A stretch of 30,312 nucleotides of DNA from a virus (Duplodnaviria > Caudoviricetes), in IMG/VR virus record IMGVR_UViG_3300033067_000779, positions 1 through 30,312 of that record; one strand, written 5' to 3'. Position 1 is the stretch's first letter. Every line of letters starts with the position of its first letter. Positions 2,345 through 21,159 of this stretch are shown here, piece after piece. A program made the translations under genes and the position numbers. The notes under the pieces are model-generated. The model had not been told where the DNA came from and did not search any database. It was given only the letters and a program-made list of their open reading frames with translations.

Positions 2345-2623
2345 ATGAGCAGTAGCGATCCCTTCGACGCCCAGCGGCAGGCGGCCACGCTCCTAGGAGA
2401 CGTGATTTTCGCCCTGAACCTTTCCACTGAGCACCGGGCGGCCTTGCAGGACGCGATGGGCCGATGGATGCACGCCCTGGCAAACGCCGCCAACGCGGCG
2501 GCGGGCCGGGCGGCCGTGGCGCTCATCGAGGCGCAGCGGGCACGGGTGGACGCCAACACGGCGCTCCTTGCCGATCTGGCGCAGCGCGTCGAGGTGCTGG
2601 AGGGCGGCCGTGGCGAGTCCTGA
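2345..2623 (+). CDS. Hypothetical helical/coiled-coil protein
   Basis: GGAGGGAG RBS upstream; C-terminal heptads 'LLADLAQRVEVLE'. Confidence 0.65.
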   Translation: MSSSDPFDAQRQAATLLGDVIFALNLSTEHRAALQDAMGRWMHALANAANAAAGRAAVALIEAQRARVDANTALLADLAQRVEVLEGGRGES

Positions 2624-2987
2624 CGAGCTGCGCGACATCGAGCTACGGCGGCTTGCCGAGCTGGAAAAGCAGCGCGCCTACCACGGCATCGACACGGACC
2701 CGGAGATCCTGCTAGAGATCGCCGACATCCGCGCACGCTACGGCGCCGACGCGCACGCCACCCCGCCGCATCGGGTGGCGACGACCAAGGACACGGTTGC
2801 GGCGCTGTGGCTGGAGATTGACTTGATCCGGGCGCTCGCCGCCTCCGCGCTGCGGATGGCGGTGGACTGGCACCAGTGGCGCAACCGGCTGCTCTACGCG
2901 ATCGGCGTGCTCGCCGTCGTGAGCGGCATCAGCATCGCCACGCTCTGGCTGGTCCTGGTGCTCGTCAGTCGGCTCGGGGGGCTGTGA
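2610..2987 (+). CDS. Membrane protein with C-terminal transmembrane helix (holin/antiholin candidate)
   Basis: GTG start at 2610 after GGAGGG. Hydrophobic C-terminus LLYAIGVLAVVSGISIATLWLVLVLV; near the endolysin. Confidence 0.6.
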   Translation: MASPDELRDIELRRLAELEKQRAYHGIDTDPEILLEIADIRARYGADAHATPPHRVATTKDTVAALWLEIDLIRALAASALRMAVDWHQWRNRLLYAIGVLAVVSGISIATLWLVLVLVSRLGGL

Positions 2988-4021
2988 TGGATACACGGCG
3001 CGTGCCAGGTATCCAGCAGAAGGGCAACAAGTGGCGGTTTCGGGTGCGCGACGGCGACGGACGCCGGCGGTGGGTATGGTGCGACACGCTGGCCGAGGCC
3101 ATCGAGCGCAAGCGGGGCGCGGTCCCGCCGCCGACGGAGCCCGAGGGCGTGCGCGTCGAGGGCCTGACGCTTGACGAGGAGCCGCCGCCGATCGAGGAAG
3201 TCTGGAGCAAGGCGATCCGCACAAGCGAGCGGGTGCTGGCAATGGCGCAGCGCAAGACGCAGCAGAGCATCGAACTCCCGAGCGAGCCGTGCGCCATCGC
3301 CTTCCTCTCCGACCTGCACCTCGGGGCGCCGGGCACCGACTACCGGGCGGCGCGGCGAGATGCGGAGATCGTCAGGGACACGCCGGGCTTCTACGCCGTC
3401 TTCCACGGCGACGGCTTCGACAACTGGATCATCGGCAAATTGCAGCCGTTGCAGCGCGGGCAGGCCGTGCCGTATGACGAAGAGGTGGCGCTGTTCGTGG
3501 ACTGGCTGAACATCTTGCGCGGCAAGTTACTCGCCGTCGTTTTGGGAAACCATGACAACTGGTCCCGCAAGGTTGGCGCGGTTGATTTCATCCGCAAGGC
3601 GCTCGACGGCGCACGGCTCCTGTTCGATACGCAGCAGGTGTACTTTCTGCTCGTCCATGGCGACACGACACGGCGGGTGCTGGTGCGGCACAAGTGGCGC
3701 GGCAGCAGTATCTACAATGTGACGCACGGGATTGAGGTGGGATGGGACCGACTCGGCGTCAACTTCGATTGGGGCATCGCCGGGCACACGCACATCGGCA
3801 CCTACTGCCGCCCGTTCACGCGGCACCGCAAGCGCCGCCACGCGATTTTGACGGGCGCGTATAAGCTGGTTGACGAGTTCGCCGCCGAGATTGGCTTTGC
3901 ACCGACGGACGGCATGGGCTGCGGGGCAATGGTGCTCCACCCCGACGGGCGCGAATGGTGGTTCGACGGACTGAGCGAGGCGGCCGAGTTTCTGACGTAT
4001 TTGCGGAGCAAGGGAGGCTAG
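2987..4021 (+). CDS. Calcineurin-like metallophosphoesterase with N-terminal AP2/integrase-arm-like domain
   Basis: SDLHLG, GDGFD, GNHD, RH and GHTH motifs. ATG 2987 overlaps the upstream TGA. N-terminal 'GIQQKGNKWRFRVRDGDGRRRW..TLAEAIE'. Confidence 0.8.
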   Translation: MDTRRVPGIQQKGNKWRFRVRDGDGRRRWVWCDTLAEAIERKRGAVPPPTEPEGVRVEGLTLDEEPPPIEEVWSKAIRTSERVLAMAQRKTQQSIELPSEPCAIAFLSDLHLGAPGTDYRAARRDAEIVRDTPGFYAVFHGDGFDNWIIGKLQPLQRGQAVPYDEEVALFVDWLNILRGKLLAVVLGNHDNWSRKVGAVDFIRKALDGARLLFDTQQVYFLLVHGDTTRRVLVRHKWRGSSIYNVTHGIEVGWDRLGVNFDWGIAGHTHIGTYCRPFTRHRKRRHAILTGAYKLVDEFAAEIGFAPTDGMGCGAMVLHPDGREWWFDGLSEAAEFLTYLRSKGG

Positions 4022-5949: not shown

Positions 5950-7041
5950 GTGCCCGTCTTCCGTCGGCCATCATTTGCCCCGTTCCGGCGGCGCCCGTCG
6001 ATCCTCGGCGGCGCGCCCGCGCCAGTGTTTGACGGTACGGGCGCGGTGGTGGCGACGGCGACGGCAAGCGGCGCGGCCTCGCACACCGCGCCCACCTTTG
6101 CCGGATCGGGGGCGGTCGTCGCGACGGCCGCCGTCAGTGGCGCCGGTTCGCACACCGCCCCGACGTTCAGCGGGGCCGGGGCGGTCACGGCCACCGCCAC
6201 CGCCACCGGCAGCGCGGCGCACACCGCGCCGACGTTTAGCGCAAGCGGCGCGGTGGGGGCGGTCGCCACCGCAACGGGCGCCGGTTCGCACACGGCACCC
6301 ACCTTTGCGGGGAGCGGCGCGGTCAGTGCCACGGCTTCGGCGAGTGGCGCGGGCACACACACGGCCTCAACCTTCGACGGCACGGGCGCGGTAACGGCGG
6401 CTGCGTCTGTCAGCGGCGAGGGCTCGCACGCCGCGTCACTGTTTGACGGCACCGGCGCGGTTGTGGCCGTGGCGACCGTGAGCGGGGCCGGCGCGCACAC
6501 CGCGCCGACGTTCGCAGGCTCGGGCGCCGTGGTTGCGGCGGCCGTCGGGAGTGGCAGCGGCAGTCACACCGCCCCGACGTTCAGCGCGAGTGGGGCGGTC
6601 GTTGCGACGGCAACCGTCACCGGCGCCGGGGCGTTTGTCGAGGCCGGTGCATTCGACGGCACGGGCGCGGTCGTCGCCATCGCCACGGCAAGCGGCAGCG
6701 GCAGCCACGCGGCCCCGACGTTTGCGGGGAGTGGCGCGGTCGTCGGGGGTGCTCAGGCGACCGGGGCGGCCTCGCACACGGCCCCGACATTCAGCGTCAG
6801 TGGTGGGGTTGTTGCGTCGGCGGTCGTGATCGGGGCGGGCGTCTATGCAATCGACGGCGTGGGCGCGGTCGTTGCCTACGCGACGGTGAGCGGCGTGGCG
6901 GTGTTCACGGAAGGGGGCGTACTTGCCCCCGGCACGACGATCGCTCTGCCCGCGTTGCACCGGCGCGTCACCAGCCGAGCCGAACGGAGCACCATACTGG
7001 CCGCCCTTCAGCGGCGCGTCACCCTAGATACGAGGGATTAG
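5950..7041 (+). CDS. Ala/Gly/Ser/Thr-rich repeat protein, putative fibre
   Basis: About 13 copies of a ~23-aa unit FxGSGAVVATAxxSGAGSHTAPT. Confidence 0.75.
   Translation: MPVFRRPSFAPFRRRPSILGGAPAPVFDGTGAVVATATASGAASHTAPTFAGSGAVVATAAVSGAGSHTAPTFSGAGAVTATATATGSAAHTAPTFSASGAVGAVATATGAGSHTAPTFAGSGAVSATASASGAGTHTASTFDGTGAVTAAASVSGEGSHAASLFDGTGAVVAVATVSGAGAHTAPTFAGSGAVVAAAVGSGSGSHTAPTFSASGAVVATATVTGAGAFVEAGAFDGTGAVVAIATASGSGSHAAPTFAGSGAVVGGAQATGAASHTAPTFSVSGGVVASAVVIGAGVYAIDGVGAVVAYATVSGVAVFTEGGVLAPGTTIALPALHRRVTSRAERSTILAALQRRVTLDTRD
6028..6910 (+). repeat. Degenerate ~69-bp coding tandem repeat (~13 units)
   Basis: Unit-initial Phe codons recur at 6028, 6097, 6166, 6235 and onward; protein-level conservation exceeds DNA-level conservation. 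Confidence 0.85.
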
Positions 7042-7043
7042 GC

Positions 7044-7319
7044 ATGGCATCCTACATCCGCGATCCGAAAGATCCCGACGACGTGGACACCTTCAGCGTC
7101 GATTGGACTAACCGCCTCGGCAGCGAGACGATCAGCACGCTTGCCGTCTCCGCTGTCTCGGGCTGCACGGTAGACAGCAGCAGCACGAGCGGCGCGGTGA
7201 CGACGGCAACCGTGAGCGGTGGTACGGCAGGCGTGGCGGCCGTGGTGCGGTTTCGTATCACCACGTCGGGCGGGCGGCAGCTTGATGAGACGGTGACGAT
7301 CCCGGTAGAGGCGCGGTAG
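7044..7319 (+). CDS. Putative phage fibre adaptor protein
   Basis: The 'KDPDDVDTFSVDW..SGGTAG..ITTSGGR..ETV' signature is seen in small phage Ig-like adaptor proteins. Confidence 0.65.
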   Translation: MASYIRDPKDPDDVDTFSVDWTNRLGSETISTLAVSAVSGCTVDSSSTSGAVTTATVSGGTAGVAAVVRFRITTSGGRQLDETVTIPVEAR

Positions 7320-7330
7320 GAGGGGAGCGG

Positions 7331-7798
7331 GTGACGACGGCACGACAGACACGAAAGACGGCTAAAAAAGAGGTGTGGCGGGATTCGTTCCTGGCCGCGC
7401 TTGCGGCTGTCGGGAACGTGTCTGAGGCCGCCAAAGCCGCCGGGGTGAGCCGGGCGTTCGTCTACACGGAGCGCAAGGCCGATCCCGCGTTCGCGGCGCT
7501 GTGGGATGACGCCCTCGACAGCGCGGCCGACGTGATGGAGCGAGAGGCGTTCCGGCGCGCCGTGGAGGGCGTTGACGAGCCGGTGTTCGGCCCGACGGGG
7601 CGCGGACTTGGCTCGGGCGAGATCGGCACGATCCGCAAGTACTCAGACACGCTGCTGATCTTCCTCTTGAAAGGTGCGCGGCCGAACAAGTACCGCGAGA
7701 CGACGCGCAATATCAACGTCACCTTGACGCCCGAGCAGGTGGCGCAGATGAGCGACGCCGAGATCGACGCCGAACTGAAGCGGCGGGGGCTGCTGTGA
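7331..7798 (+). CDS. terS: Terminase small subunit
   Basis: HTH 'FLAALAAVGNVSEAAKAAGVSRAFVY', 'EAFRRAVEG', 'KYSDTLLIFLLKGARPNKYRE'; overlaps the terL start (GTGA). Confidence 0.85.
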   Translation: MTTARQTRKTAKKEVWRDSFLAALAAVGNVSEAAKAAGVSRAFVYTERKADPAFAALWDDALDSAADVMEREAFRRAVEGVDEPVFGPTGRGLGSGEIGTIRKYSDTLLIFLLKGARPNKYRETTRNINVTLTPEQVAQMSDAEIDAELKRRGLL

Positions 7799-10191
7799 TC
7801 AGCGCCGACGATCTGCTGCTCGTGCGGGAGCATCGTCGGCGAAAGGCGCTGCCACCCCATCCCGCCTTCCGCGCCGCCGCAGACGAGGCGCAGCGCATCA
7901 CCGATCGCGCGTGGCTGTTGGCGGGCCCTGCCGAGTGCGTCGCCGGCGAGACGTGTATCTACGACCCGACAACGGGCAAGAGCACGCCGATTCGTGACCT
8001 TGCCGAGCGGGGCGATCCGATCGCCGTACTGACTGTCTACGGCCCACAAACAGTAGCGGCGCCGTTCCACAAAGGGCGGGCGCCGCTGTATCGGGTGACA
8101 ATGGCGAGCGGGCGATCATTTGTGGCGACAGATCGCCATGTCATGCTTACGTCTGAGGGGTGGTGTTATCTGCGCGACTTGCGCGTCGGCGCCGTGGTGC
8201 CCTCATCCGCTCCCATCCCTCTGCCGTCCACTGTGGACGCTGGCCCTTCAGCGTTTCAGCAAGGTGGTCGGCGTTCGTCCCATAGACCGCGAGATTCTCG
8301 GGGCGATTATCCTGTTTATCACCATTCTTGTGATGCACAACCTCTTGTGGTTGAAGATAGCGCCCAAGTGTTTGCTCCATCACAAGCCGGTGTTCTCGCA
8401 CATAATTATGCCGATCGCGGGCAGGATGATCGGGGCACTTTATCAACACGTAGCCGTCTTGGTCGATTACCCGCCCGCCCCTCCATCGCCCATTGCGCTC
8501 CATTACCGGCTCATATGGCGTATAGGGGACGGCATGCCGTTCAAGATACGCCTTCACATGGCGCTTGTTCGTGCCAACCTGGCGCGCTATCTCACTCAAG
8601 CTTGCGCCCTCTGCTGCAAGTCGGCGCACTGTATCAGCATTCCGAAGGATTGCATTGTCACGAAGCCGCGTGCGGGCTACGCCCTGCTTCGTCAGGTACT
8701 TGTCTACCTGATGCTGCGAGCATCCTACTAGCCGTGCTGTGGTCGGCGTGGACTGCGTCTCTTGAAATATCTCCAAGATACGCGCTTTCTGCTCATCCGT
8801 TAGGGGTGGGCGCTTCATATGCCTCTCCTGTGGCGCCGATGAATACGGTATGTGGCTATTATACGGTACAGATGGATACGGTGTCAAGCGTAGCATACGA
8901 ACAGGTGGGCGACTTCTACGATATGACGGTGCCTGGCGCGGCGCACTACTTTGCCGAGGGGTATTGGCACCATAACACGGGCAAGACCTTCGCCGGCCTC
9001 TACCGGCTCGACAGCGAGGCGCGGCGCTACCCGGATCAGTACATCCTGGCGCGCAAGGTGCGGGCGACGATGGACAGCACGGTGCTCGGCACGTGGCGGC
9101 GCATCATCGCGCTGCGCGGCGGGGTGACGGCGTTTGGCGGCGAGCACCCGCAGTTCTACGTCTACCCGAACGGCGCGCGGGTGTGGGTTGTGGGCTTCGA
9201 TAATCCCGACAAGATCCTGTCCGGCGAGTTCGGCGGCGCCTACGTCAACCAGGCCGAGGAGCTTGACGAAGCGGACTTCGAGACGCTAACCACCCGCGTG
9301 ACGGGGCGTGGCAGCCAGACCCCAACGCCGATGGTGTGGGGCGACTGCAACCCCGGCCCCGAGGACCACTGGATTATGCGCCGGGCGCAGAGCGGCGCCT
9401 TGATGCTCCTGGAGAGCCGCCACGAGGACAACCCGACGCTCCACGACGGCAGCGATTGGACCGAGCAGGGCCGCCGCACGCTCGCCACGCTTGACGCGCT
9501 CACGGGCGTGCGCTACCAGCGGCTTCGCCTCGGGCGGTGGGTCGGCGCCGAGGGGCAATACTTCGACCAGTGGGACGAGGCGCGGCACGTCATCGCGCCA
9601 CGGGCCACGACCGGGCGGCATGTGTGGGGCGCGTTTGACTACGGCTATACGCACAACACGGCCTTCCTGCTGCTGAGCAGCGGCCCGGACGGATCGATCG
9701 AGGTGATCGGCGAGCACGTGCAGCACAAGTGGCTGCCGAGTCAGCACGCGGCGGCGATGGACGCGCTTTGTGCCCGCCTTGGCGTGCGGCCCCGCTTCGT
9801 TGTCGCCGGCCTTGACGTGTTTCAGGCGAAGGGCGACAGCGACGGGCGGACGATCGCGGATCAGTACGCGGCGCTCGGCTGGCGCTTTGAGCCGGCGCAG
9901 GTAGACCGCGTGAGCGGCGCCGCCGAACTCTCGCAGCGGCTTGGCAACCCGGCCGCCGACATCGCGCCGACGCTGCGGGTGTGGCAGACGTGCCCGCGCC
10001 TGATCGCTACCATGCCGCGCATGGTCCACGACCCGCGCCGGCCTGAGGATGTGCTGAAGACCGACGCTGACGCCGAGGGGCGGGGCGGCGATGATCCGTA
10101 TGACGCGCTCCGCTACGGGGTGATGGCGACACGGCAGCCCGTCACCATTCGCCGCGCTCGCACGACTGACCGATTTGGAGACGTACGCTGA
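7795..10191 (+). CDS. terL: Terminase large subunit precursor containing an intein (mature protein ~451 aa)
   Basis: Removing 7936-8976 restores Walker A GPAE|TGKT. Walker B-like 'AYVNQAEE', coupling motif 'DCNP', nuclease motifs 'FDYGY' and 'DDPYDALRY'. Confidence 0.92.
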   Translation: MISADDLLLVREHRRRKALPPHPAFRAAADEAQRITDRAWLLAGPAECVAGETCIYDPTTGKSTPIRDLAERGDPIAVLTVYGPQTVAAPFHKGRAPLYRVTMASGRSFVATDRHVMLTSEGWCYLRDLRVGAVVPSSAPIPLPSTVDAGPSAFQQGGRRSSHRPRDSRGDYPVYHHSCDAQPLVVEDSAQVFAPSQAGVLAHNYADRGQDDRGTLSTRSRLGRLPARPSIAHCAPLPAHMAYRGRHAVQDTPSHGACSCQPGALSHSSLRPLLQVGALYQHSEGLHCHEAACGLRPASSGTCLPDAASILLAVLWSAWTASLEISPRYALSAHPLGVGASYASPVAPMNTVCGYYTVQMDTVSSVAYEQVGDFYDMTVPGAAHYFAEGYWHHNTGKTFAGLYRLDSEARRYPDQYILARKVRATMDSTVLGTWRRIIALRGGVTAFGGEHPQFYVYPNGARVWVVGFDNPDKILSGEFGGAYVNQAEELDEADFETLTTRVTGRGSQTPTPMVWGDCNPGPEDHWIMRRAQSGALMLLESRHEDNPTLHDGSDWTEQGRRTLATLDALTGVRYQRLRLGRWVGAEGQYFDQWDEARHVIAPRATTGRHVWGAFDYGYTHNTAFLLLSSGPDGSIEVIGEHVQHKWLPSQHAAAMDALCARLGVRPRFVVAGLDVFQAKGDSDGRTIADQYAALGWRFEPAQVDRVSGAAELSQRLGNPAADIAPTLRVWQTCPRLIATMPRMVHDPRRPEDVLKTDADAEGRGGDDPYDALRYGVMATRQPVTIRRARTTDRFGDVR
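8147..8818 (-). CDS. HTH-HTH-HNH homing endonuclease encoded antisense inside the intein
   Basis: 223 aa from ATG 8818 with AGGAGAGG RBS. Two HTH-like segments, then 'GYV..EHRLVMEQTLGRYL..EVVHHKNGDKQDNRPENL' (HNH_3-type). Confidence 0.9.
   Translation of the reverse strand: MKRPPLTDEQKARILEIFQETQSTPTTARLVGCSQHQVDKYLTKQGVARTRLRDNAILRNADTVRRLAAEGASLSEIARQVGTNKRHVKAYLERHAVPYTPYEPVMERNGRWRGGRVIDQDGYVLIKCPDHPARDRHNYVREHRLVMEQTLGRYLQPQEVVHHKNGDKQDNRPENLAVYGTNADHLAETLKGQRPQWTAEGWERMRAPRRRRASRADNTTPQT
8858..8887 (-). promoter_or_regulatory. Consensus sigma70 promoter for the antisense HNH gene
   Basis: Minus strand reads TTGACA (8887-8882), 18 bp spacer, TATAAT (8863-8858), about 40 nt upstream of the HNH ATG. 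Confidence 0.85.
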
Positions 10192-11531
10192 TGCCACGAC
10201 CACGCGCCACGATCGGCAGCCTCGGCCTGCCGCTGTTCGCCGGGAAGATAAGCCTCGACGTGAACCCGCGCCTACGCGGCAAAGAGGCGGTGAAGGTCTA
10301 CCGCCAGATGGCCGCCGACGAGCCCGCTGCCACCGCGTTCCTCGGCGCCTGCCGCACGCTGCTGCGGACGGACCTGGCGGTGCAGCCCGGCGCCGACCCG
10401 CGCCACGCCGAGCACGTCGAGATGTGCCTGGACGAGATGCGGGACAGCGCCGCCGTCAAGCTGCGCCAACTCTACTCGATGATCGCCTACGGCTACGATA
10501 TCCACGAGATCGTGTATCGCCGCCGCTCCGACGGCACCGTCGGCTGGGCCGATTGGGCGCTGCGGCGGCAGGAGTCGTTCGAGCGGTGGGAGGTGGACAA
10601 GCGGGGCGCGATCGTGGCGTGGACGCAGCGCCCGGCGCCCGACTACGTGCTACGGACGATCCCGCTCGCCAAGGCGCTCCACGTCGTCGCCAATGACGAC
10701 GACGGCACGCCCGAGGGGGTGAGCGCGCTGCGCGGGATGTACCGGCTGTGGCGGTTCGTGTCGAACTTCGAGTGGCTGCTCGGCGTCGGCCTGGAGCGCG
10801 GCACGGGGTTTCCGGTGTTTCAGCGGACGGACGCGGGGGTGACGATAGCACCCGAGCAGCTTGACGAGTTGGAGGACCAGGCGAAGGCGATCCGGCAGAA
10901 CGAAGAGGCGTATGTCATCCTCCCGCCGGGGATCGGCTTCTCGTTCGCTGAGATGCCCGGCCTGACCGCCGAGTCGTACCTGGAGGCCATCCAGCGCTTC
11001 CGGGTGTGGATGCTGGCCACGGTGCTGAGTGACTTCATCGCCTTGGGCACGCAGGGCGGCAGCTACGCGCTCGGCAAGGATAAGACGGAACTGTTCCTGA
11101 TGGCCCTCAATGGCTACCAGGACCGCGTGTGCGAGGCCATCAACAAGGCCATCGTGCGGCTGCTGCGTGCGAACGGTTGGCCGACGGAGGAGCCGCCCAC
11201 CGTGACGCTGCCGGCCGTCCGCAAGTACGACCTCGGCGCCGTCAGCTCGTTCGCTAAGGCGCTCAGCGACATCGGCGCGTTCCACGTCACACCAGGCGAT
11301 GAGGCGATGTTCCGGCGCATGGCCGACTTTATCGACGTGCCGCAGGAGGAGCTTGACGATCTCTTTGAGACGGACGCGCCGCAGCCGGGCCGCACGCCCG
11401 CCGACACACCGGAGATGGAGGAGGAGGATGCTGATCCACCTGGACCCGCTGTTGAAGGAGATGAAGGCGATGACGGCGCTGCTTCGCCGCGTCGTGGAAC
11501 TGCTGGAAGACGAAGCGCGCCGGCCCGCTGA
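10191..11531 (+). CDS. Portal protein (DUF935/Mu gp29-like)
   Basis: Follows terL. 'YGYDIHEIVY', 'PEGVSALRGMYRLW', 'GLER..GFPV', 'GGSYALG' are typical of this portal family. Confidence 0.85.
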   Translation: MPRPRATIGSLGLPLFAGKISLDVNPRLRGKEAVKVYRQMAADEPAATAFLGACRTLLRTDLAVQPGADPRHAEHVEMCLDEMRDSAAVKLRQLYSMIAYGYDIHEIVYRRRSDGTVGWADWALRRQESFERWEVDKRGAIVAWTQRPAPDYVLRTIPLAKALHVVANDDDGTPEGVSALRGMYRLWRFVSNFEWLLGVGLERGTGFPVFQRTDAGVTIAPEQLDELEDQAKAIRQNEEAYVILPPGIGFSFAEMPGLTAESYLEAIQRFRVWMLATVLSDFIALGTQGGSYALGKDKTELFLMALNGYQDRVCEAINKAIVRLLRANGWPTEEPPTVTLPAVRKYDLGAVSSFAKALSDIGAFHVTPGDEAMFRRMADFIDVPQEELDDLFETDAPQPGRTPADTPEMEEEDADPPGPAVEGDEGDDGAASPRRGTAGRRSAPAR

Positions 11532-11569: not shown

Positions 11570-11812
11570 GTGAAGGGGCGATTTCTGCGGCGCGGCGTGC
11601 CGGGGGCACCGCGCTACCCAACCTCGACGTACATGCCTGATCCGTATGCGGTACGAAGCGGCGACTTTCTGCTGCTTCACCACGGCTATGAGCATGTGAC
11701 GCACGTTCACGAGTTCGGGGATGGTGTGCGGTTCGCGCAGACAACGAACATGCTTGCGGTCCCCGGCGGCGCGGTGGTTCACGACCTCCGCGATGGGGAG
11801 CCGGCCTCATGA
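11570..11812 (+). CDS. Hypothetical protein
   Basis: GAGGAGG RBS before GTG 11570; its stop overlaps the next ATG. Confidence 0.5.
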   Translation: MKGRFLRRGVPGAPRYPTSTYMPDPYAVRSGDFLLLHHGYEHVTHVHEFGDGVRFAQTTNMLAVPGGAVVHDLRDGEPAS

Positions 11813-12573
11813 TCCTCGTCGCCACACCGCAGCGCCCGGTCTACCCGGATGCGCTCGTCGCCCGCAACACGGCGCAGATCGCGGCACTGGAGGGCAACCT
11901 GGACATCGTGCGCGACACCACGCCGGTGCTGGTGCCCGACGACGCGCCGATCTACACGCGGCACGCCGTCGCCCGCAACGCGCTCATCGACCGCCATCTG
12001 CGCGACTGGCATACGCATGTGCTGTGGGTTGACGCCGACCTGATCGACGTGCCGCCCGATCTGCCGCGCATCCTGCTGGAGACGGCACGGCGGGGGCCGA
12101 CGGAGACGGCGTGCCCGTTCTGCCGCTCGGATCTCGTGGTAGACCACGGCGACGGGACGTGCGACTGCGGCGATTGCGGCAGCGGGTGGCTGCGCGGGGA
12201 GTTTGCGTCCATCGTCGCGCCGATGGCCGTGCTGGACCCATCGCCCGCGCGGCTGGCCGCCTACCCGGTTGCCGAGCAGTTCTACGACATCGGGGGGTTT
12301 CTGGAGCCGAGGGGCGGGATGCTGCACCGGGCGCGGATGTTCCCGCCGTGGTTCGATCAGACGGGGCCGGTGATCGAGCTTGCCTCGGTCGGCTGCTGCT
12401 ACCTCATCCCGGCGCACGTCTACCGGCGCGGCGTGCGCTACGCCCCGCCCGGCATACCGGGCCCGGTGGAGCACTGGAGCGTGATGCGGCAGGCGGGACT
12501 ACGGGTGTGCGCCCGCACCGACGTGCGCGTCATCCACGCCTGGCTGCCAGACTATGGGCTAGAGCCGAACTAG
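11809..12573 (+). CDS. GT-A fold glycosyltransferase (Anp1/GT2-like) with an inserted zinc ribbon
   Basis: 'ARNALID', 'VLWVDADL' DxD motif, 'FYDIGGF', 'ELASVGCCYLIPAHVYR', 'VEH', 'VIH'; insert CPFC..CGDC. Confidence 0.75.
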   Translation: MILVATPQRPVYPDALVARNTAQIAALEGNLDIVRDTTPVLVPDDAPIYTRHAVARNALIDRHLRDWHTHVLWVDADLIDVPPDLPRILLETARRGPTETACPFCRSDLVVDHGDGTCDCGDCGSGWLRGEFASIVAPMAVLDPSPARLAAYPVAEQFYDIGGFLEPRGGMLHRARMFPPWFDQTGPVIELASVGCCYLIPAHVYRRGVRYAPPGIPGPVEHWSVMRQAGLRVCARTDVRVIHAWLPDYGLEPN

Positions 12574-12583
12574 GAGGGGCAAG

Positions 12584-12814
12584 ATGGAACCCGCGCGTAT
12601 TATCGAGGTGGTAGCGCAGCGCGATGGACTGACCCCCGGCGCGGCACGGGTGCTTATCGAGCGGTGGGCGTGGCCGCTTGGATTGGCGCTCGGTCCGGCC
12701 TATACGAAGGCGCATGACAATCATCCTGATTGGCAGTTGTGGCTTCTTGCCGAGCGCGACACGAGCCCATCATTGGAAACGTGGCTGCTGTTTACAGAGA
12801 AGGCAGGGCGCTAG
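12584..12814 (+). CDS. Hypothetical protein
   Basis: AGGAGG RBS; fills the gap between two genes exactly; lower GC than its neighbours. Confidence 0.55.
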   Translation: MEPARIIEVVAQRDGLTPGAARVLIERWAWPLGLALGPAYTKAHDNHPDWQLWLLAERDTSPSLETWLLFTEKAGR

Positions 12815-13423
12815 ATGCTCGCAATCATCCCCGCCGGGGGCAAGGCCGAGCGGTTCCACGGCATCTACAAGGATCTCTTGCCGCTCGGCGACGGGCGCAC
12901 GCTGCTCGGCGAGACGCTGAGCCGGGCGCGGGCGATGGGCTGCACGCGGGCCGTCGTCGTCACGTCGGCGGAGAAGGCCGCCGCCCACGAGCGGGCGCTG
13001 GCCGGCACGGATACCACCTTGCTCGTCTCGACGGGGCGCGGGCTGTGGGCGGCGATTGCGGCGGCGCTCGTCATTCCGTCTGACGCGCTGCTGCTGCTGC
13101 CGGACACGGTGTTCACGCCCGTCGAGCCGGTGCCGCCGTTCCCGCTCTCGTTCGGCGTGTTCCCGACGAACGAGCCGGAGCGCTTCAGCGTCATCCGGGG
13201 CGACACGATCGTCACGAAAGAGCCAGGGCCGCCGTCGCTCGCCTGGGGCTGCGTGGCGTGGTCGGTGGCGGTCGCGGACTGGTGGCAGGGGCAGGCGTTC
13301 AGCCACTACGATGATGCCTTCCGGGGCGCCATGCGGCGGTTCGGCCATCGCACGTTTTCGATCGCGGGCTATGAGGACTTCGGCGCATGGCCGGCGTATC
13401 GGCGCTATGTGGAGGCGTTATGA
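12815..13423 (+). CDS. Sugar-phosphate nucleotidyltransferase-like protein
   Basis: N-terminal 'AIIPAGGKAERF..KDLLPL', 'LLLPDT', 'PERFSV', 'TKEP' and 'YEDFG' match the NTP_transferase (RmlA/GalU-like) layout. Confidence 0.8.
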   Translation: MLAIIPAGGKAERFHGIYKDLLPLGDGRTLLGETLSRARAMGCTRAVVVTSAEKAAAHERALAGTDTTLLVSTGRGLWAAIAAALVIPSDALLLLPDTVFTPVEPVPPFPLSFGVFPTNEPERFSVIRGDTIVTKEPGPPSLAWGCVAWSVAVADWWQGQAFSHYDDAFRGAMRRFGHRTFSIAGYEDFGAWPAYRRYVEAL

Positions 13424-14121
13424 ACATCACCATCGCCTCGGCGTTCCGCAACGCCTCCCGCTACATTCCGACCTACGCCGGGCAGATGCGCGGCCTCGTG
13501 GGCGCCCTCCACGCACGCGGCGATACGCCGCGCCTGCTGCTGGTGCACGGGGACTCGACGGACAACACCGCCGAGTTGCTCGAAGCGCTGCCGGGCGCCG
13601 TGCCGTGTCCGATGCATCTCTTCGAGTGCTCCCACGGCGGGCGCAACCTCGGCAGCGTGGACACGGTGGAGCGCTGGACGCAGATCGCCACGATCTGGAA
13701 TGCGCTGCTGGCGCGGCTGGACCCGGCCGCCGATGTGTTCCTGCTGATCGAGTCGGATCTGGTGTGGCAGCCTGCGGCGCTGGTGCGGGCCGTGGACCAG
13801 CTCGGGCCGGACGTGGACGGCGTGGCGGGCATGACGTGGTTCCAGGGCCGCTTTTATGAGATCTGGGGTACGAAAAGTGATGGGATCAATTTCACGACGC
13901 ATCCGCCGTACCATCCGCGCTGGACAGGGCATCTCATGCGCATAGACAGCGCGGGGAGTTTGATGTGTGCAAAAGCAGAGTATGCCCGTAATGCGCGGTT
14001 CACGAATACCGACGGCATCATTGGATGGTGCAACGGCATGCGCGAAGCCGGAGCCAATCTTTGGCTTGACCCGGCCATCGATCTCTACCACCCGCCCTAT
14101 GAGGAGCTACGGCCGCTATGA
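13420..14121 (+). CDS. GT-A fold glycosyltransferase (GT2-like)
   Basis: 'ITIASAFRNASRYI', 'GDSTDNT', 'FLLIESDL', 'IDSAGS', 'LYHP'; ATG 13420 overlaps the upstream TGA. Confidence 0.75.
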   Translation: MNITIASAFRNASRYIPTYAGQMRGLVGALHARGDTPRLLLVHGDSTDNTAELLEALPGAVPCPMHLFECSHGGRNLGSVDTVERWTQIATIWNALLARLDPAADVFLLIESDLVWQPAALVRAVDQLGPDVDGVAGMTWFQGRFYEIWGTKSDGINFTTHPPYHPRWTGHLMRIDSAGSLMCAKAEYARNARFTNTDGIIGWCNGMREAGANLWLDPAIDLYHPPYEELRPL

Positions 14122-14314: not shown

Positions 14315-14343
14315 TTGACACGGTAGAGTAAAGGCTCTATACT
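14315..14343 (+). promoter_or_regulatory. Sigma70-type promoter upstream of the head genes
   Basis: TTGACA (14315-14320), 17 bp spacer, TATACT (14338-14343). Confidence 0.85.
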
Positions 14344-16909: not shown

Positions 16910-16938
16910 CGCATTAGGAAGCGGTAAATGGGGGTTCG

Positions 16939-16947
16939 TGGTATAAT
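16939..16947 (+). promoter_or_regulatory. Extended -10 promoter for the GIY-YIG gene
   Basis: TGGTATAAT (TGn-TATAAT) in the gap after the capsid stop; no clear -35. Confidence 0.6.
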
Positions 16948-17020
16948 GCAAGGAACAGATGTGCTCCCGCGCAGCGCCAACTGCCGGGAGCGTGGCCGCA
17001 ACCTAATTGGGAGGTGCGAC

Positions 17021-17731
17021 ATGGGCATTCTACCACGAGTGGACGCCTACGGTGTTGTGTATCTCATTCGCAACACCGCAAGCGGCGGGGTCTACGTCGG
17101 ACAGACGATACAAGACTACCGCATTCGATGGCGTCGCCACCGCGATAACCTCACGCGCGGTGTACATGAGAACCCCCATTTACAGCGATCATGGAACAAG
17201 CACGGCGCAGCCGTGTTCGTCGTTGATGTCGCAGAGGCAGTCGCCGACCAAGACTCTCTCAACATTGCCGAGCAGCGATGGATTGTAGACCTTCGTGCGC
17301 GTGGCGTGCGGGTCTACAACCTCAAAGACGGCGGATCTCCCTTCGGCGGATCGCCTAGCGAGGAAACCCGGCGGCGAATAGGCGAGTCGAGTCGTGGACG
17401 CAAGGCAAGTGCTGAGACGTGTCAGCGCATCGCTGATGCAACACGCGGCGTCCCTAAAACCCGCACGCCTGCACTAGAGGCGAAATGGGAGGCGCAGCGC
17501 GGGAAAAGAGAGACGCCCGAACAGACGGCGAAGCGGCTTGCTGGCATGGCGCGGAATAGGCCGATTGTTGTCTTTCGCGCGCCCGATGGCGCCCTCCACG
17601 AAACACAGAACATAACCGATCTTGCCCAGCGCCACGGCCTACATCCGCGCCTGCTGCACTACGTTGCGTCGGGCAAGCAGCACCATCATCGCGGGTGGGT
17701 GCTTGTAGAAAAGAAAGGAGGCTCAGCATGA
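17021..17731 (+). CDS. Free-standing GIY-YIG homing endonuclease with NUMOD3-like repeats
   Basis: 'GVVYLIRN..VYVGQT..RWRRH..HENPHLQRSWNKHG..AEQRWI..YNL', 'SEETRRRIGES'. ATG 17021 after GGGAGGT; GC lower than flanks. Confidence 0.88.
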   Translation: MGILPRVDAYGVVYLIRNTASGGVYVGQTIQDYRIRWRRHRDNLTRGVHENPHLQRSWNKHGAAVFVVDVAEAVADQDSLNIAEQRWIVDLRARGVRVYNLKDGGSPFGGSPSEETRRRIGESSRGRKASAETCQRIADATRGVPKTRTPALEAKWEAQRGKRETPEQTAKRLAGMARNRPIVVFRAPDGALHETQNITDLAQRHGLHPRLLHYVASGKQHHHRGWVLVEKKGGSA

Positions 17732-18748
17732 AGGTATATGTTATTCATCCTGGGGCGTCCTTTTAGCACCGCCGATGTATTCGACGGGCTGGTTGCGGGC
17801 TTGCGGGCGAATGGCGTAGACGTGACGGAGGGCCGGCTCGATACGATCCTCGCGTGGTACGACACCCTGGTAGTCGTCGGCGCGGCACGGGGTGTCCTCC
17901 ACACGACGGCCCTGGACCCGGACCACCTGAACCGGTGGGCGCTGGCGTCGGCGCACATCACGCGCCACATCCTCCTGACGGAGCCGGACCTGGTGATCGC
18001 CGTCTCGGCGCATAACTACAGCGTCGGTGACGCCAAGATCCTCAAGCGCTACGGCTTCAAAACGGCCATGCTCGGCACCGAGGCGCCATACCTGATCGAT
18101 CTGGAGGCGCAGTTTGCGGCCCTGTACGGCACGGTGTTCACCAACGAGCGGGCGTCAGTGCCGCGCTTCCGCACCGTCAACCCGAACGCCCACTATCTGC
18201 CGCATGCCTACAACCCCGACGTGCATCGCCCCGATGGGCCGGCGTCACCCTCGGACGTGCTGTTCGTCGGCTCGCTGTTTGACGAGCGCCGCGCCCTCTT
18301 TTCGGGCGTGGACTGGACGGGGATTGACTTCCACTGCCGGGGCTACGACCTCGCCCGCGACGTGCAGACGGCCGACATCGTGGCGAACACCGAGACGGCC
18401 GCGCTGTACCGGGGGACGAAGATCGCGCTGAACCATCACCGCACGACGACGAGCCACGCAAGCGGGCAGCACATCGCCGCCGACGAGGCCGAATCGCTCG
18501 GCCCGCGCGCCTATGAGATCGCCGCGTGCGGGGCGTTTCAACTGATGGACGACAGCCGGGCCGAGGCCCGCGAGGTGTTCGGCGAATCGCTCGTCACCTA
18601 CCGGGCCGGCGACAGCGCCGCTCTGGCGCGGCAGGTACGGACGTGGCTAGACCGCGATCGGACAGCCGTAGCGGCTGCGCAGCGGGCGGCGATCTTGCCG
18701 CACTCGTGGACGGCGCGGGCGCGGCAGGTGCTTGAGGTGCTGGCATGA
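17728..18748 (+). CDS. CgeB-like (GT-B, Glyco_trans_1_2) glycosyltransferase with a +1 frame break near the N-terminus
   Basis: 'YLPHAYNPDVH', 'DVLFVGS', 'IALNHHR', 'PRAYEIAACGAFQL', 'HSWTARA'. The RBS-supported start at 17728 stops at 17764 unless shifted +1. Confidence 0.8.
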
Positions 18749-19263
18749 GCTACGACTACGGCACTCCGGCGGGCGTGGCGCGCTACGTCCGCCACCTCTG
18801 CAACACGGCCGGCGTGTTCGACACCGCCACCCGCCCGACGCTTGCCGACGTGGAGGCGTTCCTGGAGGAGCGGTCCAACCAGCTCAACGCCTGGTTGGCT
18901 CAGGCCGGCTACGTCGTGCCCGTCACGGCGGCGCGGGCAGCGTCGGTGCTGGGGCGCTACGCCAGCCTTGGCGCGGCGTGCGACTGCGAGCTGACCCAGC
19001 GCAGCGCGGGGTACTCGGAGGACGAGAACCGCCGCGAGAACAAGTTCTGCGCGCAGTTCTTGGAAGCCGAAGCCTACATCAAGAGCGGCGCACTCTCCGC
19101 GCTCGGGGCAACCACCACGGCCGCGCCGGCGGTGCTCAGCGGGCTGCGCGTCGGCGGGAGGACCGCGACGGGGCAGCGCTTGCGGCCGGTGTTTGGGCGG
19201 ACGGGATTCAACAACGACCCGACGGCGGAAAGCCCGACGGCGGAAGGGGCGTGGGACGAGTGA
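18745..19263 (+). CDS. Putative head-tail adaptor
   Basis: 'YGTPAGV', 'TRPTLADVEAFL..LNAWL..GYVVPV' helical pattern; position after the capsid gene. Confidence 0.65.
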   Translation: MSYDYGTPAGVARYVRHLCNTAGVFDTATRPTLADVEAFLEERSNQLNAWLAQAGYVVPVTAARAASVLGRYASLGAACDCELTQRSAGYSEDENRRENKFCAQFLEAEAYIKSGALSALGATTTAAPAVLSGLRVGGRTATGQRLRPVFGRTGFNNDPTAESPTAEGAWDE

Positions 19264-19652
19264 TCGCCTACACCATCACGGGCGTTGAGGCAGTGCTTGC
19301 CGACCTGGCGCGCATCCGCCTCGACCACGCCGCCGCCGTGCTGCGCGACTACCTGACGGACGTAGTAGCGCCGGACGCCGCCAACTACCCGGCAGAGATC
19401 CCCGGCCAGCGCTACGTCAGGACCGACACTCTTAAGCTCGGCTGGACGGAGGCCGAGCCGACCGTGAGCGCCACAGCGGGCGACGTGCTGGCGGTGCTGG
19501 AGAACAGCACGCCGTATGGGGACTACGTGCAAGGCGACGCGCAAGCGAGCGTCCACGCGGGCCGCTGGCGTACCGTGGACATGCTGATGGACGCGCACGA
19601 GGCCGGGGCGGCGCAGGCGATCGAGGCGTGGGTCGGAGGGCTCGTCTCGTGA
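19260..19652 (+). CDS. Putative neck/tail completion protein (HK97 gp10-like)
   Basis: GTG 19260 overlaps the upstream stop; 'ITGVEAV', 'YVRTDTLKLGW', 'NSTPYGDYVQG'. Confidence 0.65.
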   Translation: MIAYTITGVEAVLADLARIRLDHAAAVLRDYLTDVVAPDAANYPAEIPGQRYVRTDTLKLGWTEAEPTVSATAGDVLAVLENSTPYGDYVQGDAQASVHAGRWRTVDMLMDAHEAGAAQAIEAWVGGLVS

Positions 19653-20140
19653 GCACCTACACCACCGCTGAAGCCGCCGTGCTCACGCTGCTACGCGCCT
19701 ACGACGGCGGCGGAGTGTTCACCGAGGCGAACGCAAGCCGGGGCGACTTCTCGGCCACGGACGCGCCGGGCTACCGGCAGTATGCCGTCGTGCTGATGGC
19801 CGACAGCAGCGACTACGGCGACGGGCGCTCGCACGGCAAGCGGCAGCAGACGCACCGGATCAGCGTGCTGCTGTTCCAGGCGCGTGAGCAGGGGCTCGGC
19901 GGCGACGGCGCGGCGTATAGCGCCCTGACGACGCTTACGGACGCCGTGGCGGCGTGGTTCGAGCGCTACCCCCGGCTGAACGGGGCGGCGGGCGTCAAGC
20001 GGGCGGCGATCGTCCGCGTCGGCAAGCCACGGACGACGCAGGCGCCGGGCGGCGGGGCAGGCCCGCACCTCGTGCAGCCGATCATGCTGGACGTGCTGTG
20101 CGAGACGACGCCCGCGCAGCAGGAGAGCGCCGGGGCATGA
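19649..20140 (+). CDS. Putative tail terminator protein
   Basis: GTGA overlap; ~163 aa; position before the tail tube gene. Confidence 0.55.
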   Translation: MSTYTTAEAAVLTLLRAYDGGGVFTEANASRGDFSATDAPGYRQYAVVLMADSSDYGDGRSHGKRQQTHRISVLLFQAREQGLGGDGAAYSALTTLTDAVAAWFERYPRLNGAAGVKRAAIVRVGKPRTTQAPGGGAGPHLVQPIMLDVLCETTPAQQESAGA

Positions 20141-21159
20141 AACTCCTCGTCATTGACAGCGGCGATGCGTTCAGCACCAAGGATGTGTTTGACGGCCTCG
20201 TGAGCGGACTCAAGGCCAACGGCGCGGAGGTGTACACCTATCCGCTCTGCACGAACCTCCAGATTATGGAGGCGATGACGGATGCGGCCAAGGCGCTCCA
20301 GGTGTTCAACCACGAGCCGGACCCGTACAACCTCGCCGCCGCCGGTATACCGGGCGTGGCGATGTACCGGCAGGTGGACGCGGTGATCGCCGTCACGGGG
20401 ATGAAGCTGCCGTTCGGCGTGCCGCTGGCGCTCAAGCGCGGCGGCTACCTGACGGCACTGCTCTGCACGGAGTCGCCGTACCTGACGGCGGAGCGCGAGC
20501 GCCACGACGCGGCGTGCTATGACGTGGTGTTCACCAACGACCGCAGCGCCGTGCCGCTGTTCGACCGCTCGGCGCACGTGCATTACCTGCCGCACGCCTA
20601 CCGGGCGGACGTGCATACGCCGGACGGGCCGCGCGCCGATCCGTGCGACGTATTCTTCGTGGGGACGCTGTTCCCTGAGCGGCGGGCGCTGTTCGACGGG
20701 ATCGATTGGACGGGCATCAACCGGGTGTTCAAGGTGTTCGATTACGACAACCGCGACGACCCGACGCAGGTATGGCACGGGATCATGCCGAACGATGAGG
20801 CGGCGACCTTCTATCGCTCGGCGCGGATCTCCATCAACCACCACCGGACGATCAAGGACCACCGCGAGCGGCAGCACATCACGGATGCCTACAGCCTCAA
20901 CCCGCGTGTCTATGAGATCGCGGCGTGCGGTGGGTTTCAGGTGTGCGACGCGAGCCGGCCGGAGTTGTTCGCGGTGTTTGGTGACAGCATACCGACCTAT
21001 ACGGATAGCGCCAGCCTGGGCCAACTGCTGCGCTACTACCTTCGCCACGAGGACGAGCGGCAGGCGCTCGCAGCCCGGCAGCGGGCGGCGGCGCTGGCGC
21101 ACTCGTGGACACAGCGCGCGGCGACCGTGCTGGACGTGCTGCGACAGCATCACCACTAG
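20137..21159 (+). CDS. CgeB-like glycosyltransferase, paralog of 17728-18748
   Basis: ATGA overlap; 'FSTKDVFDGL', 'YLPHAY', 'DVFFVGT', 'ISINHHR', 'NPRVYEIAACGGFQV', 'HSWTQRA'. Confidence 0.85.
   Translation: MKLLVIDSGDAFSTKDVFDGLVSGLKANGAEVYTYPLCTNLQIMEAMTDAAKALQVFNHEPDPYNLAAAGIPGVAMYRQVDAVIAVTGMKLPFGVPLALKRGGYLTALLCTESPYLTAERERHDAACYDVVFTNDRSAVPLFDRSAHVHYLPHAYRADVHTPDGPRADPCDVFFVGTLFPERRALFDGIDWTGINRVFKVFDYDNRDDPTQVWHGIMPNDEAATFYRSARISINHHRTIKDHRERQHITDAYSLNPRVYEIAACGGFQVCDASRPELFAVFGDSIPTYTDSASLGQLLRYYLRHEDERQALAARQRAAALAHSWTQRAATVLDVLRQHHH

Follow-up and report, generated by a model that had tools for sequence, protein, structure and literature searches.

A Walker A intein in a phage terminase gene with an intact HNH endonuclease gene on its opposite strand

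Introduction

The TerL gene of a Caudoviricetes virus (IMG/VR record IMGVR_UViG_3300033067_000779, positions 1 to 30,312, the whole of which is referred to here as the window) is interrupted in its Walker A motif by an insert that is open on both strands, which raises the question of whether one segment of DNA can encode a protein-splicing domain and a nuclease at once, and whether the two belong together. A sequence-only reading had taken the insert to be a class 1 intein splitting GPAE/TGKT, with a non-protein-like + frame between blocks B and F and a complete minus-strand HTH-HTH-HNH gene with its own RBS, and had proposed a dual-coding element; the analysis presented here confirms this layout and supports dual coding. 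We conclude that the insert is a class 1 Walker A intein containing an intact antisense HNH gene, and consider it likely that intein and gene work together as a single homing element, with one part expressed from each strand.

Results

The TerL precursor is encoded by a single + strand ORF of 798 codons (7795..10191; TIGR01547, E 6.5e-13; phrog_2, E 1.6e-20) that runs unbroken through the intein and lies between + strand genes for the terminase small subunit (7331..7798; phrog_4044, E 9e-38) and a portal protein (10191..11531; Portal_Mu, E 2e-26). The intein of 347 aa (7936-8976, + strand; C1...HN/T) follows an N-extein of 47 aa (7795..7935, + strand) whose last residues, GPAE, are the first half of Walker A, and precedes a C-extein (8977..10191, + strand) that starts with the +1 Thr of TGKT and contains the ATPase and nuclease domains; the spliced product would have ~451 aa. 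The sequence features of a class 1 intein are all present (C1, T65/H68, D329, H346-N347 and the +1 Thr), and they fall within an N-terminal splicing region (residues 1-91, 7936..8208, with C1 and block B T65-x-x-H68) and a C-terminal one (residues 311-347, 8866..8976, with block F D329, H346 and N347), which include the invariant residues and which AF2 models as a Hint fold with a pLDDT of 96-98. The intervening residues 92-310 (8209..8865, + strand) are a stop-free linker, predicted to be disordered (pLDDT about 50), that results from reading the HNH gene in the + frame; profile searches between blocks B and F, where a canonical intein has its endonuclease in frame, found no nuclease family in this frame. 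As a single sequence the intein scores under the curated cut-offs of both models that it hits, Pfam Intein_splicing (E 1.4e-5) and TIGR01445 (E 5.6e-5). Its profile matches PDB inteins at E 7.8e-27, and the top PDB match of the AF2 model is the Mtu RecA intein (Foldseek, E 3.6e-7).

Removal of the intein would restore a conserved host motif, since the motif is uninterrupted in 117 of the 120 TerL homologs among the matches listed, with GPAE/TGKT itself in 59 of those 117. The intein is predicted to splice out to give GPAETGKT. One might suppose instead that the insert is not read as one protein, either because TerL is made in two pieces, from an internal ATG near 8839 and with a split intein, or because the insert is removed from the RNA, and the database gene call P0123 (450 aa) does begin at that internal ATG. 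A split, however, would not need the ~220 stop-free codons that are kept both in the window and in its relatives, the two Hint halves are modeled as a single domain, and an Rfam search, by which group I and group II introns were also rejected as candidates, gave nothing at E ≤1; we regard this possibility as very remote.

The gene on the opposite strand (8147..8818, - strand) encodes an HTH-HTH-HNH endonuclease of 223 aa with the HNH residues H143, H162, H163, N171, N175, N182 and H185, and is preceded by a Shine-Dalgarno-like AGGAG (8825..8829, - strand) located 6 nt ahead of the ATG. When both strands were searched, this protein matched HNH_3 (E 1.7e-11, 44 bits versus a cut-off of 24.8) and HTH_23 (E 3.2e-8), and its AF2 model has a mean pLDDT of 91. 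Foldseek gave no HNH match to the fold at E ≤0.001, with I-HmuI (1u3e) at rank 13 (E 0.09, probability 0.99), and a PDB sequence search matched no HNH protein. The overlap of the two strands extends beyond the linker, as the 3′ end of the HNH gene overlaps the structured intein residues 71-91. An upstream ATG at 8896 would give a 249-aa ORF but was dismissed as the start of the HNH gene, as it lies upstream of the promoter described below and the N-termini of homologs fall near M1 of the 223-aa protein. A search for an intrinsic terminator of the antisense transcript found none.

The + frame over the HNH gene is offset such that a stop arises when an HNH codon NTT, NCT or NTC is followed by A, as the sequence-only reading had stated; four null models give 4.7-7.4 expected stops, against which none is observed (P(0) 0.0001-0.0035; with ~4.7 expected, P is about 0.0004). 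The remaining two + frames over the HNH region have 2 and 11 stops, and the corresponding frame in six distinct intein-free relatives has 2-13. Under the same rule, Phe before I, M, T, N or K forces a + frame stop, and among 322 Phe dipeptides in 119 homologs, which were found without DNA context, such pairs were seen 0 times versus 69 expected. In 38 pairs of relatives whose HNH proteins are 60-70% identical, identity in the + frame is 32%, and differences at the HNH codon positions are concentrated in the third (0.57 versus 0.29 and 0.24), such that selection follows the HNH frame across relatives. The family-wide figure of 0 stops versus 593-852 expected was discarded as a test because the 117 elements that it covers were chosen for an open frame.

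A survey of loci with a strong HNH match, a set not selected for open frames, showed that the frame is open in 162 of 171, and the 156 loci that have both intein ends represent 117 distinct elements. The insertion is at Walker A in 116 of these 117, and the hosts are terminases and nine other NTPase families. C1, the block F Asp and the terminal Asn are present in 117/117 and His-Asn in 113/117, and the HNH residues H143, H163, N171, N175 and H185 are likewise invariant in all 117. The + frame linker profile alone retrieves 497 clusters (50% identity) at E ≤1e-10. This family, which belongs to uncultured phages, was recovered by alignment scans. Scanning with the HNH protein as a single sequence led mainly to distant loci without an intein, and scanning viral contigs with the TerL C-extein led to one distant locus; among GenBank phages (50,697 records) there was no intein match and no HNH match covering 80%. 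GC-rich DNA is poor in stops and control genes have stop-free runs of 57-165 codons in the same frame, which might seem to allow for chance or an assembly artefact, but this explanation is refuted by the stop statistics, by an independent contig that spans the element, and by the layout common to 117 distinct elements, and we give it essentially no weight.

The antisense gene also appears to have its own promoter within the intein codons, which the sequence-only reading had not noted. A consensus sigma-70 site (TTGACA-18-TATAAT; 8858..8887, - strand) that scores 12/12, the only such site in the window, has its −35 on codons V316-S317-S318 and its −10 on Y308-Y309-T310, and its hexamers use codons that are rare in five phage genes (TCA, 1 of 82 Ser codons; TAT, 5 of 52 Tyr codons). 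The intein amino acids partly allow the promoter, as 12/12 was also reached by 1 of 30 versions of the window that had been recoded synonymously. The position is conserved in relatives, and a score of at least 9/12 is seen in 58 of 117 elements versus a mean of 13 and a maximum of 21 after synonymous recoding, while the other 59, about half of the family, score lower. In 25 of the 62 members that lack a Shine-Dalgarno motif, TAnnnT is found exactly 6 nt ahead of the first ATG, and many family members look leaderless. The promoter is predicted to drive an HNH mRNA that is separate from terL transcription and splicing. ACCGTAT repeats at this site were considered as operators; the intein codons (D/Y/N-T-V) partly account for them.

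Taken together, stop avoidance, selection in the HNH frame, invariant splicing and nuclease residues and a conserved antisense promoter support dual coding. It could be argued that the copy in the window splices while its HNH gene is a silent passenger, the open + frame reflecting selection on terL only, which would by itself suffice for stop avoidance; moreover, four metatranscriptome runs from one study yielded only short contigs scattered over the phage, which carry no strand or start information. Nevertheless, the HNH ORF, its catalytic residues, the RBS and the 12/12 promoter with its rare codons are all intact, and purifying selection acts on the HNH frame in the family, all of which makes a silent gene quite improbable.

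That the element is mobile by homing is indirectly supported by its patchy distribution and by a pattern like that of co-conversion. On the TerL tree (FastTree, with long-branch warnings, and with empty alleles picked by a length filter so that sampling is biased), the 16 intein-bearing rows need 12 state changes, eight of them forced by starred branches, and the TerL of the window groups with 10 empty alleles, which is the pattern that homing predicts. In run X2, which provided the independent contig across the element, the intein differs at no more than two sites and 32 of the 34 differences lie in the two flanks, a pattern that resembles co-conversion, although another divergent patch at 10190-10598 means that it could be ordinary phage mosaicism. 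An empty-allele joint of the same phage was not found in DNA runs X2, X7, X8 and X10, in three of which cover is patchy. Within the family, the distribution of inteins closely follows the extein clusters (33-34 changes over 30 clusters), so that moves between gene families are rare and much of the spread could be old.

These data also bear on whether the HNH protein is a free-standing-type phage endonuclease for which the intein is a safe harbour, one that nicks related terL genes away from the insertion, possibly in both alleles, and spreads by broad co-conversion or competitor exclusion rather than by precise homing. Enzymes of the I-HmuI type cut both alleles, the flanks in X2 differ over several hundred bases, and intein-free HNH relatives nest inside the family tree, several of them being arranged head-to-head with an intact NTPase gene (a helicase for L135 and L177, a deoxynucleoside kinase for L152 and L181). 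Against this, 116 of 117 elements are at Walker A, where the G-K codons beside the insertion show conservation at the DNA level (G94 G95, A87 A86), and the HNH and splicing domains have co-evolved, as their trees co-vary (Mantel 0.34, null maximum 0.155). We therefore consider the safe-harbour explanation unlikely.

Discussion

We propose that on the + strand translation of terL would continue across the entire insert, with the Hint domain folding around a disordered linker of ~220 aa and then splicing out, while on the minus strand the sigma-70 promoter in the intein C-terminal codons would drive a separate mRNA independently of terL transcription and splicing. The HTH-HTH-HNH product would bind intein-free terL alleles and nick or cut near the Walker A codons, and, with the intein-bearing genome as the repair template, the element would then be copied. 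Splicing, transcription, the cleavage site, nicking, and any timing benefit of producing the nuclease separately from a late gene are what we infer in this scheme; nicking is presumed from the behavior of I-HmuI-type enzymes.

A broader reading, which we advance tentatively and give somewhat less than an even chance, is that this is a large and old intein lineage in which two-strand coding is a stable design. The codons of the splicing domain would serve as the promoter of a nuclease that is often leaderless and so made early, apart from the late terminase, a Walker A-reading HNH would have taken the element into terminases and at least nine other families of P-loop NTPase, and the intein-free relatives would record free nucleases entering and leaving mini-inteins. 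If so, those relatives beside helicase and kinase genes offer a present-day test of the idea that homing inteins began 'splicing first'. The family also offers a naturally occurring collection of long overlapping genes in antiparallel orientation, in which constraint is measurable on both strands and a promoter lies inside a folded domain. With it, one can test how endonucleases become associated with inteins, how host genes are switched via the common Walker A, and why separate expression would be favored. Gene-calling programs divide such terminases and conceal the intein, as with P0123, and hence both surveys of phage inteins and annotation of terminases overlook them.

Among known systems, the I-HmuI-like HNH_3 enzymes resemble the window protein in that it matches HNH_3 above the cut-off, with a weak fold match to 1u3e, but I-HmuI is encoded in a group I intron, whereas the present enzymes are antisense in an intein and have one or two N-terminal HTH domains ahead of the nuclease. 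A split intein with an intervening endonuclease gene was reportedly described by Dassa in 2009; there the host gene is in two ORFs, while in the window it is a single ORF of 798 codons. The DnaX intein considered below is said to have been worked on by Gorbalenya in 1998, in a study that both Phillips and Gosselin cite.

The sequence-only reading had cautioned that its novelty needed a literature check, rightly so, as inteins with antisense nucleases are already published for LAGLIDADG and VSR-like enzymes, with terminases among the hosts. Gosselin, Arsenault and Gogarten (bioRxiv 10.1101/2025.01.02.630785) describe actinobacteriophage inteins of four types (in-frame HNH, antisense LAGLIDADG, antisense VSR-like and frame-3 EndoVII), the non-canonical ones being termed rare (63/784). 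These share with the window element a full intein with an opposite-strand endonuclease ORF, an unstructured in-frame region, terminase hosts, and a patchy distribution interpreted as homing. They differ in that the window nuclease is HNH_3 and that the present family has at least 117 distinct members, a conserved embedded promoter, and no match in 50,697 GenBank phage records. Literature searches found no antisense HNH intein, and the four types of that article do not include one; what appears to be new here is the antisense HNH class, the size of the family and the embedded promoter. Moreover, out-of-frame and antisense-nuclease inteins have been viewed as rare and likely short-lived intermediates, whereas here the layout is the norm for at least 117 elements.

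In the TerL Walker A inteins of mycobacteriophages, some of which splice and cleave (Kelley et al., 2016; PMC5050341), the TerL1-a site is between Lys and Thr of GKT, while that of the present family is before the first residue of [STC]GK[TS], and the article as consulted describes no antisense nuclease gene. The ShiLan-type insert (2025, PMC11855218) is stop-free and conceals an HNH in another of its frames, and the core of that HNH is ~53% identical to residues 107-178 of the window HNH. It is on the same strand (third frame), with zinc fingers, a methylase host and no splicing domain, whereas the window element has a Hint domain and its HNH is antisense with HTH domains. In cyanobacteria, the DnaX intein carries a LAGLIDADG gene out of frame (Phillips et al., bioRxiv 10.64898/2026.09.14.751524); it has, like the window family, an overlapping endonuclease ORF under purifying selection, a relaxed intein frame and a Shine-Dalgarno motif, and shares with it the idea of secondary invasion of a mini-intein. 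It differs in having a LAGLIDADG enzyme and a single cellular host gene, and the words HNH and promoter are absent from the main text of that article. The DnaX ORF is termed a +2 ORF there (bioRxiv 10.64898/2026.09.14.751524), but anti-sense where Gosselin et al. cite it.

An Intein in the Walker A Motif of TerL

The window holds a phage head-tail region (family and profile matches), in which TerS (7331-7798, +, profile match) is followed by TerL (7795-10191, +), by the portal gene (10191-11531, +, family match) and, downstream of the portal, by protease and major capsid genes (family matches). The intein spans 7936-8976 (+) and is 347 aa in length (TerL residues 48-394), running from a Cys start to a His-Asn end between GPAE and TGKT; TerL inteins located in Walker A are also described by Kelley et al. 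(PMC5050341). Its matches to Pfam Intein_splicing (E 1.4e-5) and TIGR01445 (E 5.6e-5) both lie under the curated cut-offs. The AlphaFold2 model, with an input alignment of 81 family sequences, has a pLDDT of 96-98 at residues 1-91 and 311-347 and of about 50 at residues 92-310, and it matched solved inteins in a structure search (best E 3.6e-7).

Alignment with intein-less TerL homologs, as proposed in the sequence-only reading, confirmed the insertion site. Walker A is uninterrupted in 117 of the 120 listed homologs of 222-707 aa (59 GPAE/TGKT, 26 GPSE, 17 GPYE), which together with the Cys1...HN/T ends and the Hint-like model bears out the class 1 intein that had been claimed to split this motif. 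Two of the other three start within the window's intein type and one is without the motif. The window's own gene call is one of these two and begins at an internal ATG, so that the annotation hides the element. Among 22 longer TerL homologs, the same intein type was judged from profiles, without DNA, to be at Walker A in four, 16 have inteins at other positions and an unbroken Walker A, and two are ambiguous; unrelated inteins were also seen at Walker B and nuclease motifs in other TerL relatives. TerL is a single 798-codon ORF through the insert, and split or RNA-level expression of the interrupted protein is highly improbable.

An Antisense HNH Gene Under Selection on Both Strands

The complete antisense HTH-HTH-HNH gene that the same reading described was recovered at 8818-8147 (-), encoding 223 aa with an HNH_3 match (E 1.7e-11) and HTH domains (model pLDDT 91), and its last codons overlap the structured intein residues 71-91. 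HNH codon positions 1, 2 and 3 lie opposite + positions 1, 3 and 2, and therefore NTT, NCT or NTC before A creates a + stop. The earlier claim that such stops are absent where several would be expected also held: none is observed across the gene, and the numbers expected are 4.7 on synonymous shuffling (P 0.00035), 4.8 with codon order permuted (P 0.0035), 7.4 under a third null (P 0.0001) and 4.7 under phage codon usage (P 0.0004). CTT/CTC encodes Leu at 9/11 safe positions versus 0/5 risky ones, and in 12 other ORFs of the window the longest stretch without a stop in the same frame is 57-165 codons. Of the patterns tested, a stop is unavoidable only where Phe precedes a codon starting with A; the others can be escaped synonymously, which makes this antisense frame cheap to keep. 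In 119 homologs found without DNA context, Phe precedes I, M, T, N or K in 0 of 322 Phe dipeptides versus 69 expected.

In 38 pairs with 60-70% HNH identity, intein-frame identity is 32% and differences at HNH codon positions 1, 2 and 3 are 0.29, 0.24 and 0.57, which indicates that the HNH is under protein-level selection and that the linker is mainly kept open. All 117 distinct elements listed retain C1, the block F Asp and the terminal Asn on the splicing side and H143, H163, N171, N175 and H185 on the HNH side. The element is real and selected on both strands; that the HNH is a silent passenger is very unlikely.

A Predicted Promoter Embedded in the Intein

Follow-up revealed a predicted antisense promoter that was absent from the first observation, a sigma-70-type TTGACA-18-TATAAT at 8887-8858 (-), located 39 nt before the HNH ATG and followed by AGGAG. 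It is the sole 12/12 site in the 30-kb window; three further sites reach 10-11, so the phage appears to use such promoters. Near-consensus sigma-70 promoters were seen as a divergent pair at 723 (-) and 823 (+), before an endolysin-like gene, and at 14315, before the head protease gene. The -35 coincides with the codons of V316-S317-S318, in a predicted beta-strand of the intein, and the -10 with those of Y308-Y309-T310. Rare codons are used there: TCA, which accounts for 1/82 Ser codons in five genes of the phage, and two TAT, which accounts for 5/52 Tyr codons.

Among the listed elements, -35 matches cluster 86-91 nt and -10 matches 110-113 nt from the intein 3' end. Scores of at least 9/12 occur in 58 of 117 (after synonymous recoding, 13 on average and 21 at most) and of at least 10 in 30 versus 4.6 after recoding. 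Against conservation, 59 of the 117 score below 9, and against the window promoter itself, a score of 12 is also reached by 1/30 synonymous recodings. TAnnnT lies exactly 6 nt 5' of the first ATG in 29/107 members, and in 25/62 of those without an SD, versus only 2-4 members at comparison gaps of 3, 9 and 12; from the sequences, this spacing reads as a leaderless-mRNA signature. No terminator was found for the antisense transcript. Around the promoter the minus strand carries three copies of ACCGTAT (8847-8882, spacing 15 and 18 nt), which may represent a local duplication that makes the leader longer or a site that the HTH domains bind for autoregulation.

A Large Family in P-loop NTPases

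A sequence search with the window HNH gave 1734 homologs. Scans of viral, metagenome and genome collections with a 62-sequence HNH alignment then gave at least 186 loci (the best 80 each from the viral and metagenome scans), and with 25 earlier loci 211 are listed, 204 of them with an HNH call. The same antisense frame is open in 162 of the 171 listed loci at 150 bits or more, and both intein ends are present in 156; of the other six, four reach a contig end and two (L052/L141) are intein-free. The nine closed loci (six distinct) are without inteins and have 2-13 stops in the frame. The intein-end profiles were iterated on these same loci, and independent support comes from the family profile against PDB inteins (E 7.8e-27). 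A survey for inteins with antisense HNH genes had been suggested at the outset; the 150 complete elements listed, window included, represent at least 117 distinct ones at 90% HNH identity (272-455 aa), and an artefact has a negligible probability.

[STC][GASC]K[TS] directly follows the intein in 97 of the 117 listed, and a looser Walker A pattern in 116. Of 108 C-exteins scanned, 33 match terminase families, 21 match nine other NTPase families (clamp-loader, AAA, AAA_23, AAA_24, AAA_25, AAA_30, AAA_34, DnaB_C and SNF2), one a second intein and 53 nothing. Searched on its own, a profile of the + frame linker matched 897 cluster representatives at E 0.001, of which 497 remain at 1e-10; the best 150 include 130 with both intein ends, 17 incomplete and three doubtful. 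Named genome records carrying the element come from several phyla, two of them being titled as isolates (L191, L195); a search of GenBank phage records gave no member of the family. Four distinct elements (L058, L087, L093, L102) end in Lys-Asn rather than His-Asn, and multi-intein hosts include the proteins P0265 (two linker-profile matches) and P0248 (1153 aa) and the locus L163 (further Hint domains).

Mobility and Proposed Mechanism

Splicing-domain and HNH distances are correlated (Mantel 0.34, null maximum 0.155), and extein changes number 33-34 for 30 clusters on both trees (shuffled at least 61); hence intein and HNH travel together, with lineages specialising on host genes. In a FastTree of 145 TerL C-exteins, from which eight rows with a missing motif or another intein were excluded, the 16 intein-bearing rows require 12 changes, eight of them forced by starred branches, and the window TerL groups with 10 empty alleles (support 98); long branches and the length filter on homologs weaken both results. 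One contig of sequencing run X2 covers 6800-9662 with 34 differences from the window, 32 of them listed at 7821-7879 and 9048-9375, leaving at most two inside the intein. Such nested, divergent flanks are compatible with co-conversion over tracts of differing length, as they are with general mosaicism. No empty allele of the window phage was seen in runs X2, X7, X8 and X10, three of which have patchy cover. RNA contigs, from four metatranscriptome runs of one study, were short and spread over different parts of the phage.

Intein-free HNH relatives nest within the family tree. Those at L135 and L177 lie head-to-head with helicase genes and those at L152/L153 and L181 with deoxynucleoside kinase genes, whose NTPase domain begins near the shared boundary; this arrangement suggests that P-loop DNA is a target of the nuclease whether or not an intein is present. 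Their shadow frame has 2-8 stops. The L052/L141 HNH (2468-3013), sister to that of the helicase intein L063, is open in this frame over the match and may have recently left an intein. A free-standing-style nuclease that shelters in an intein is unlikely, if less so than the alternatives considered earlier. In two loci lacking detectable intein motifs, L200 (1443-3167, -) and L203 (858-3824, -), N6_N4_Mtase DNA methylase ORFs are open across a same-frame antisense HNH relative, an arrangement that resembles the ShiLan insert but with the HNH in antisense.

Judged from sequence, the element is probably an active homing intein, and we consider the following scheme likely. TerL would be translated through the whole insert and the Hint domain would splice out, while the host-type promoter within the intein 3' codons would drive a separate HNH mRNA; the HNH would nick or cut empty terL in the vicinity of Walker A, with repair then copying the element into it. 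A possible advantage is that the nuclease would be made during replication, ahead of late terminase synthesis.

Two-strand inteins are already published. Gosselin et al. (10.1101/2025.01.02.630785), who cite Gorbalenya (1998), describe in-frame HNH, anti-sense LAGLIDADG, anti-sense VSR-like and frame-3 EndoVII inteins (non-canonical types 63/784, with terminases among the hosts), and Phillips et al. (10.64898/2026.09.14.751524) a DnaX intein with an out-of-frame LAGLIDADG. The hidden HNH of Arsenault et al. (PMC11855218) has a core about 53% identical to that of the window HNH but is on the same strand and without a splicing domain. A full-text literature search, covering few subscription journals and with preprint supplements outside its coverage, found no antisense HNH intein, and what is new here is the HNH class, the embedded promoter and the large family.

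Elsewhere in the window, a GIY-YIG homing endonuclease-like gene (16928-17731, +) lies directly 3' of the major capsid gene, and glycosyl-/nucleotidyltransferase-like genes among the head genes (11809-14121 and 17738-21159) suggest capsid or DNA glycosylation.
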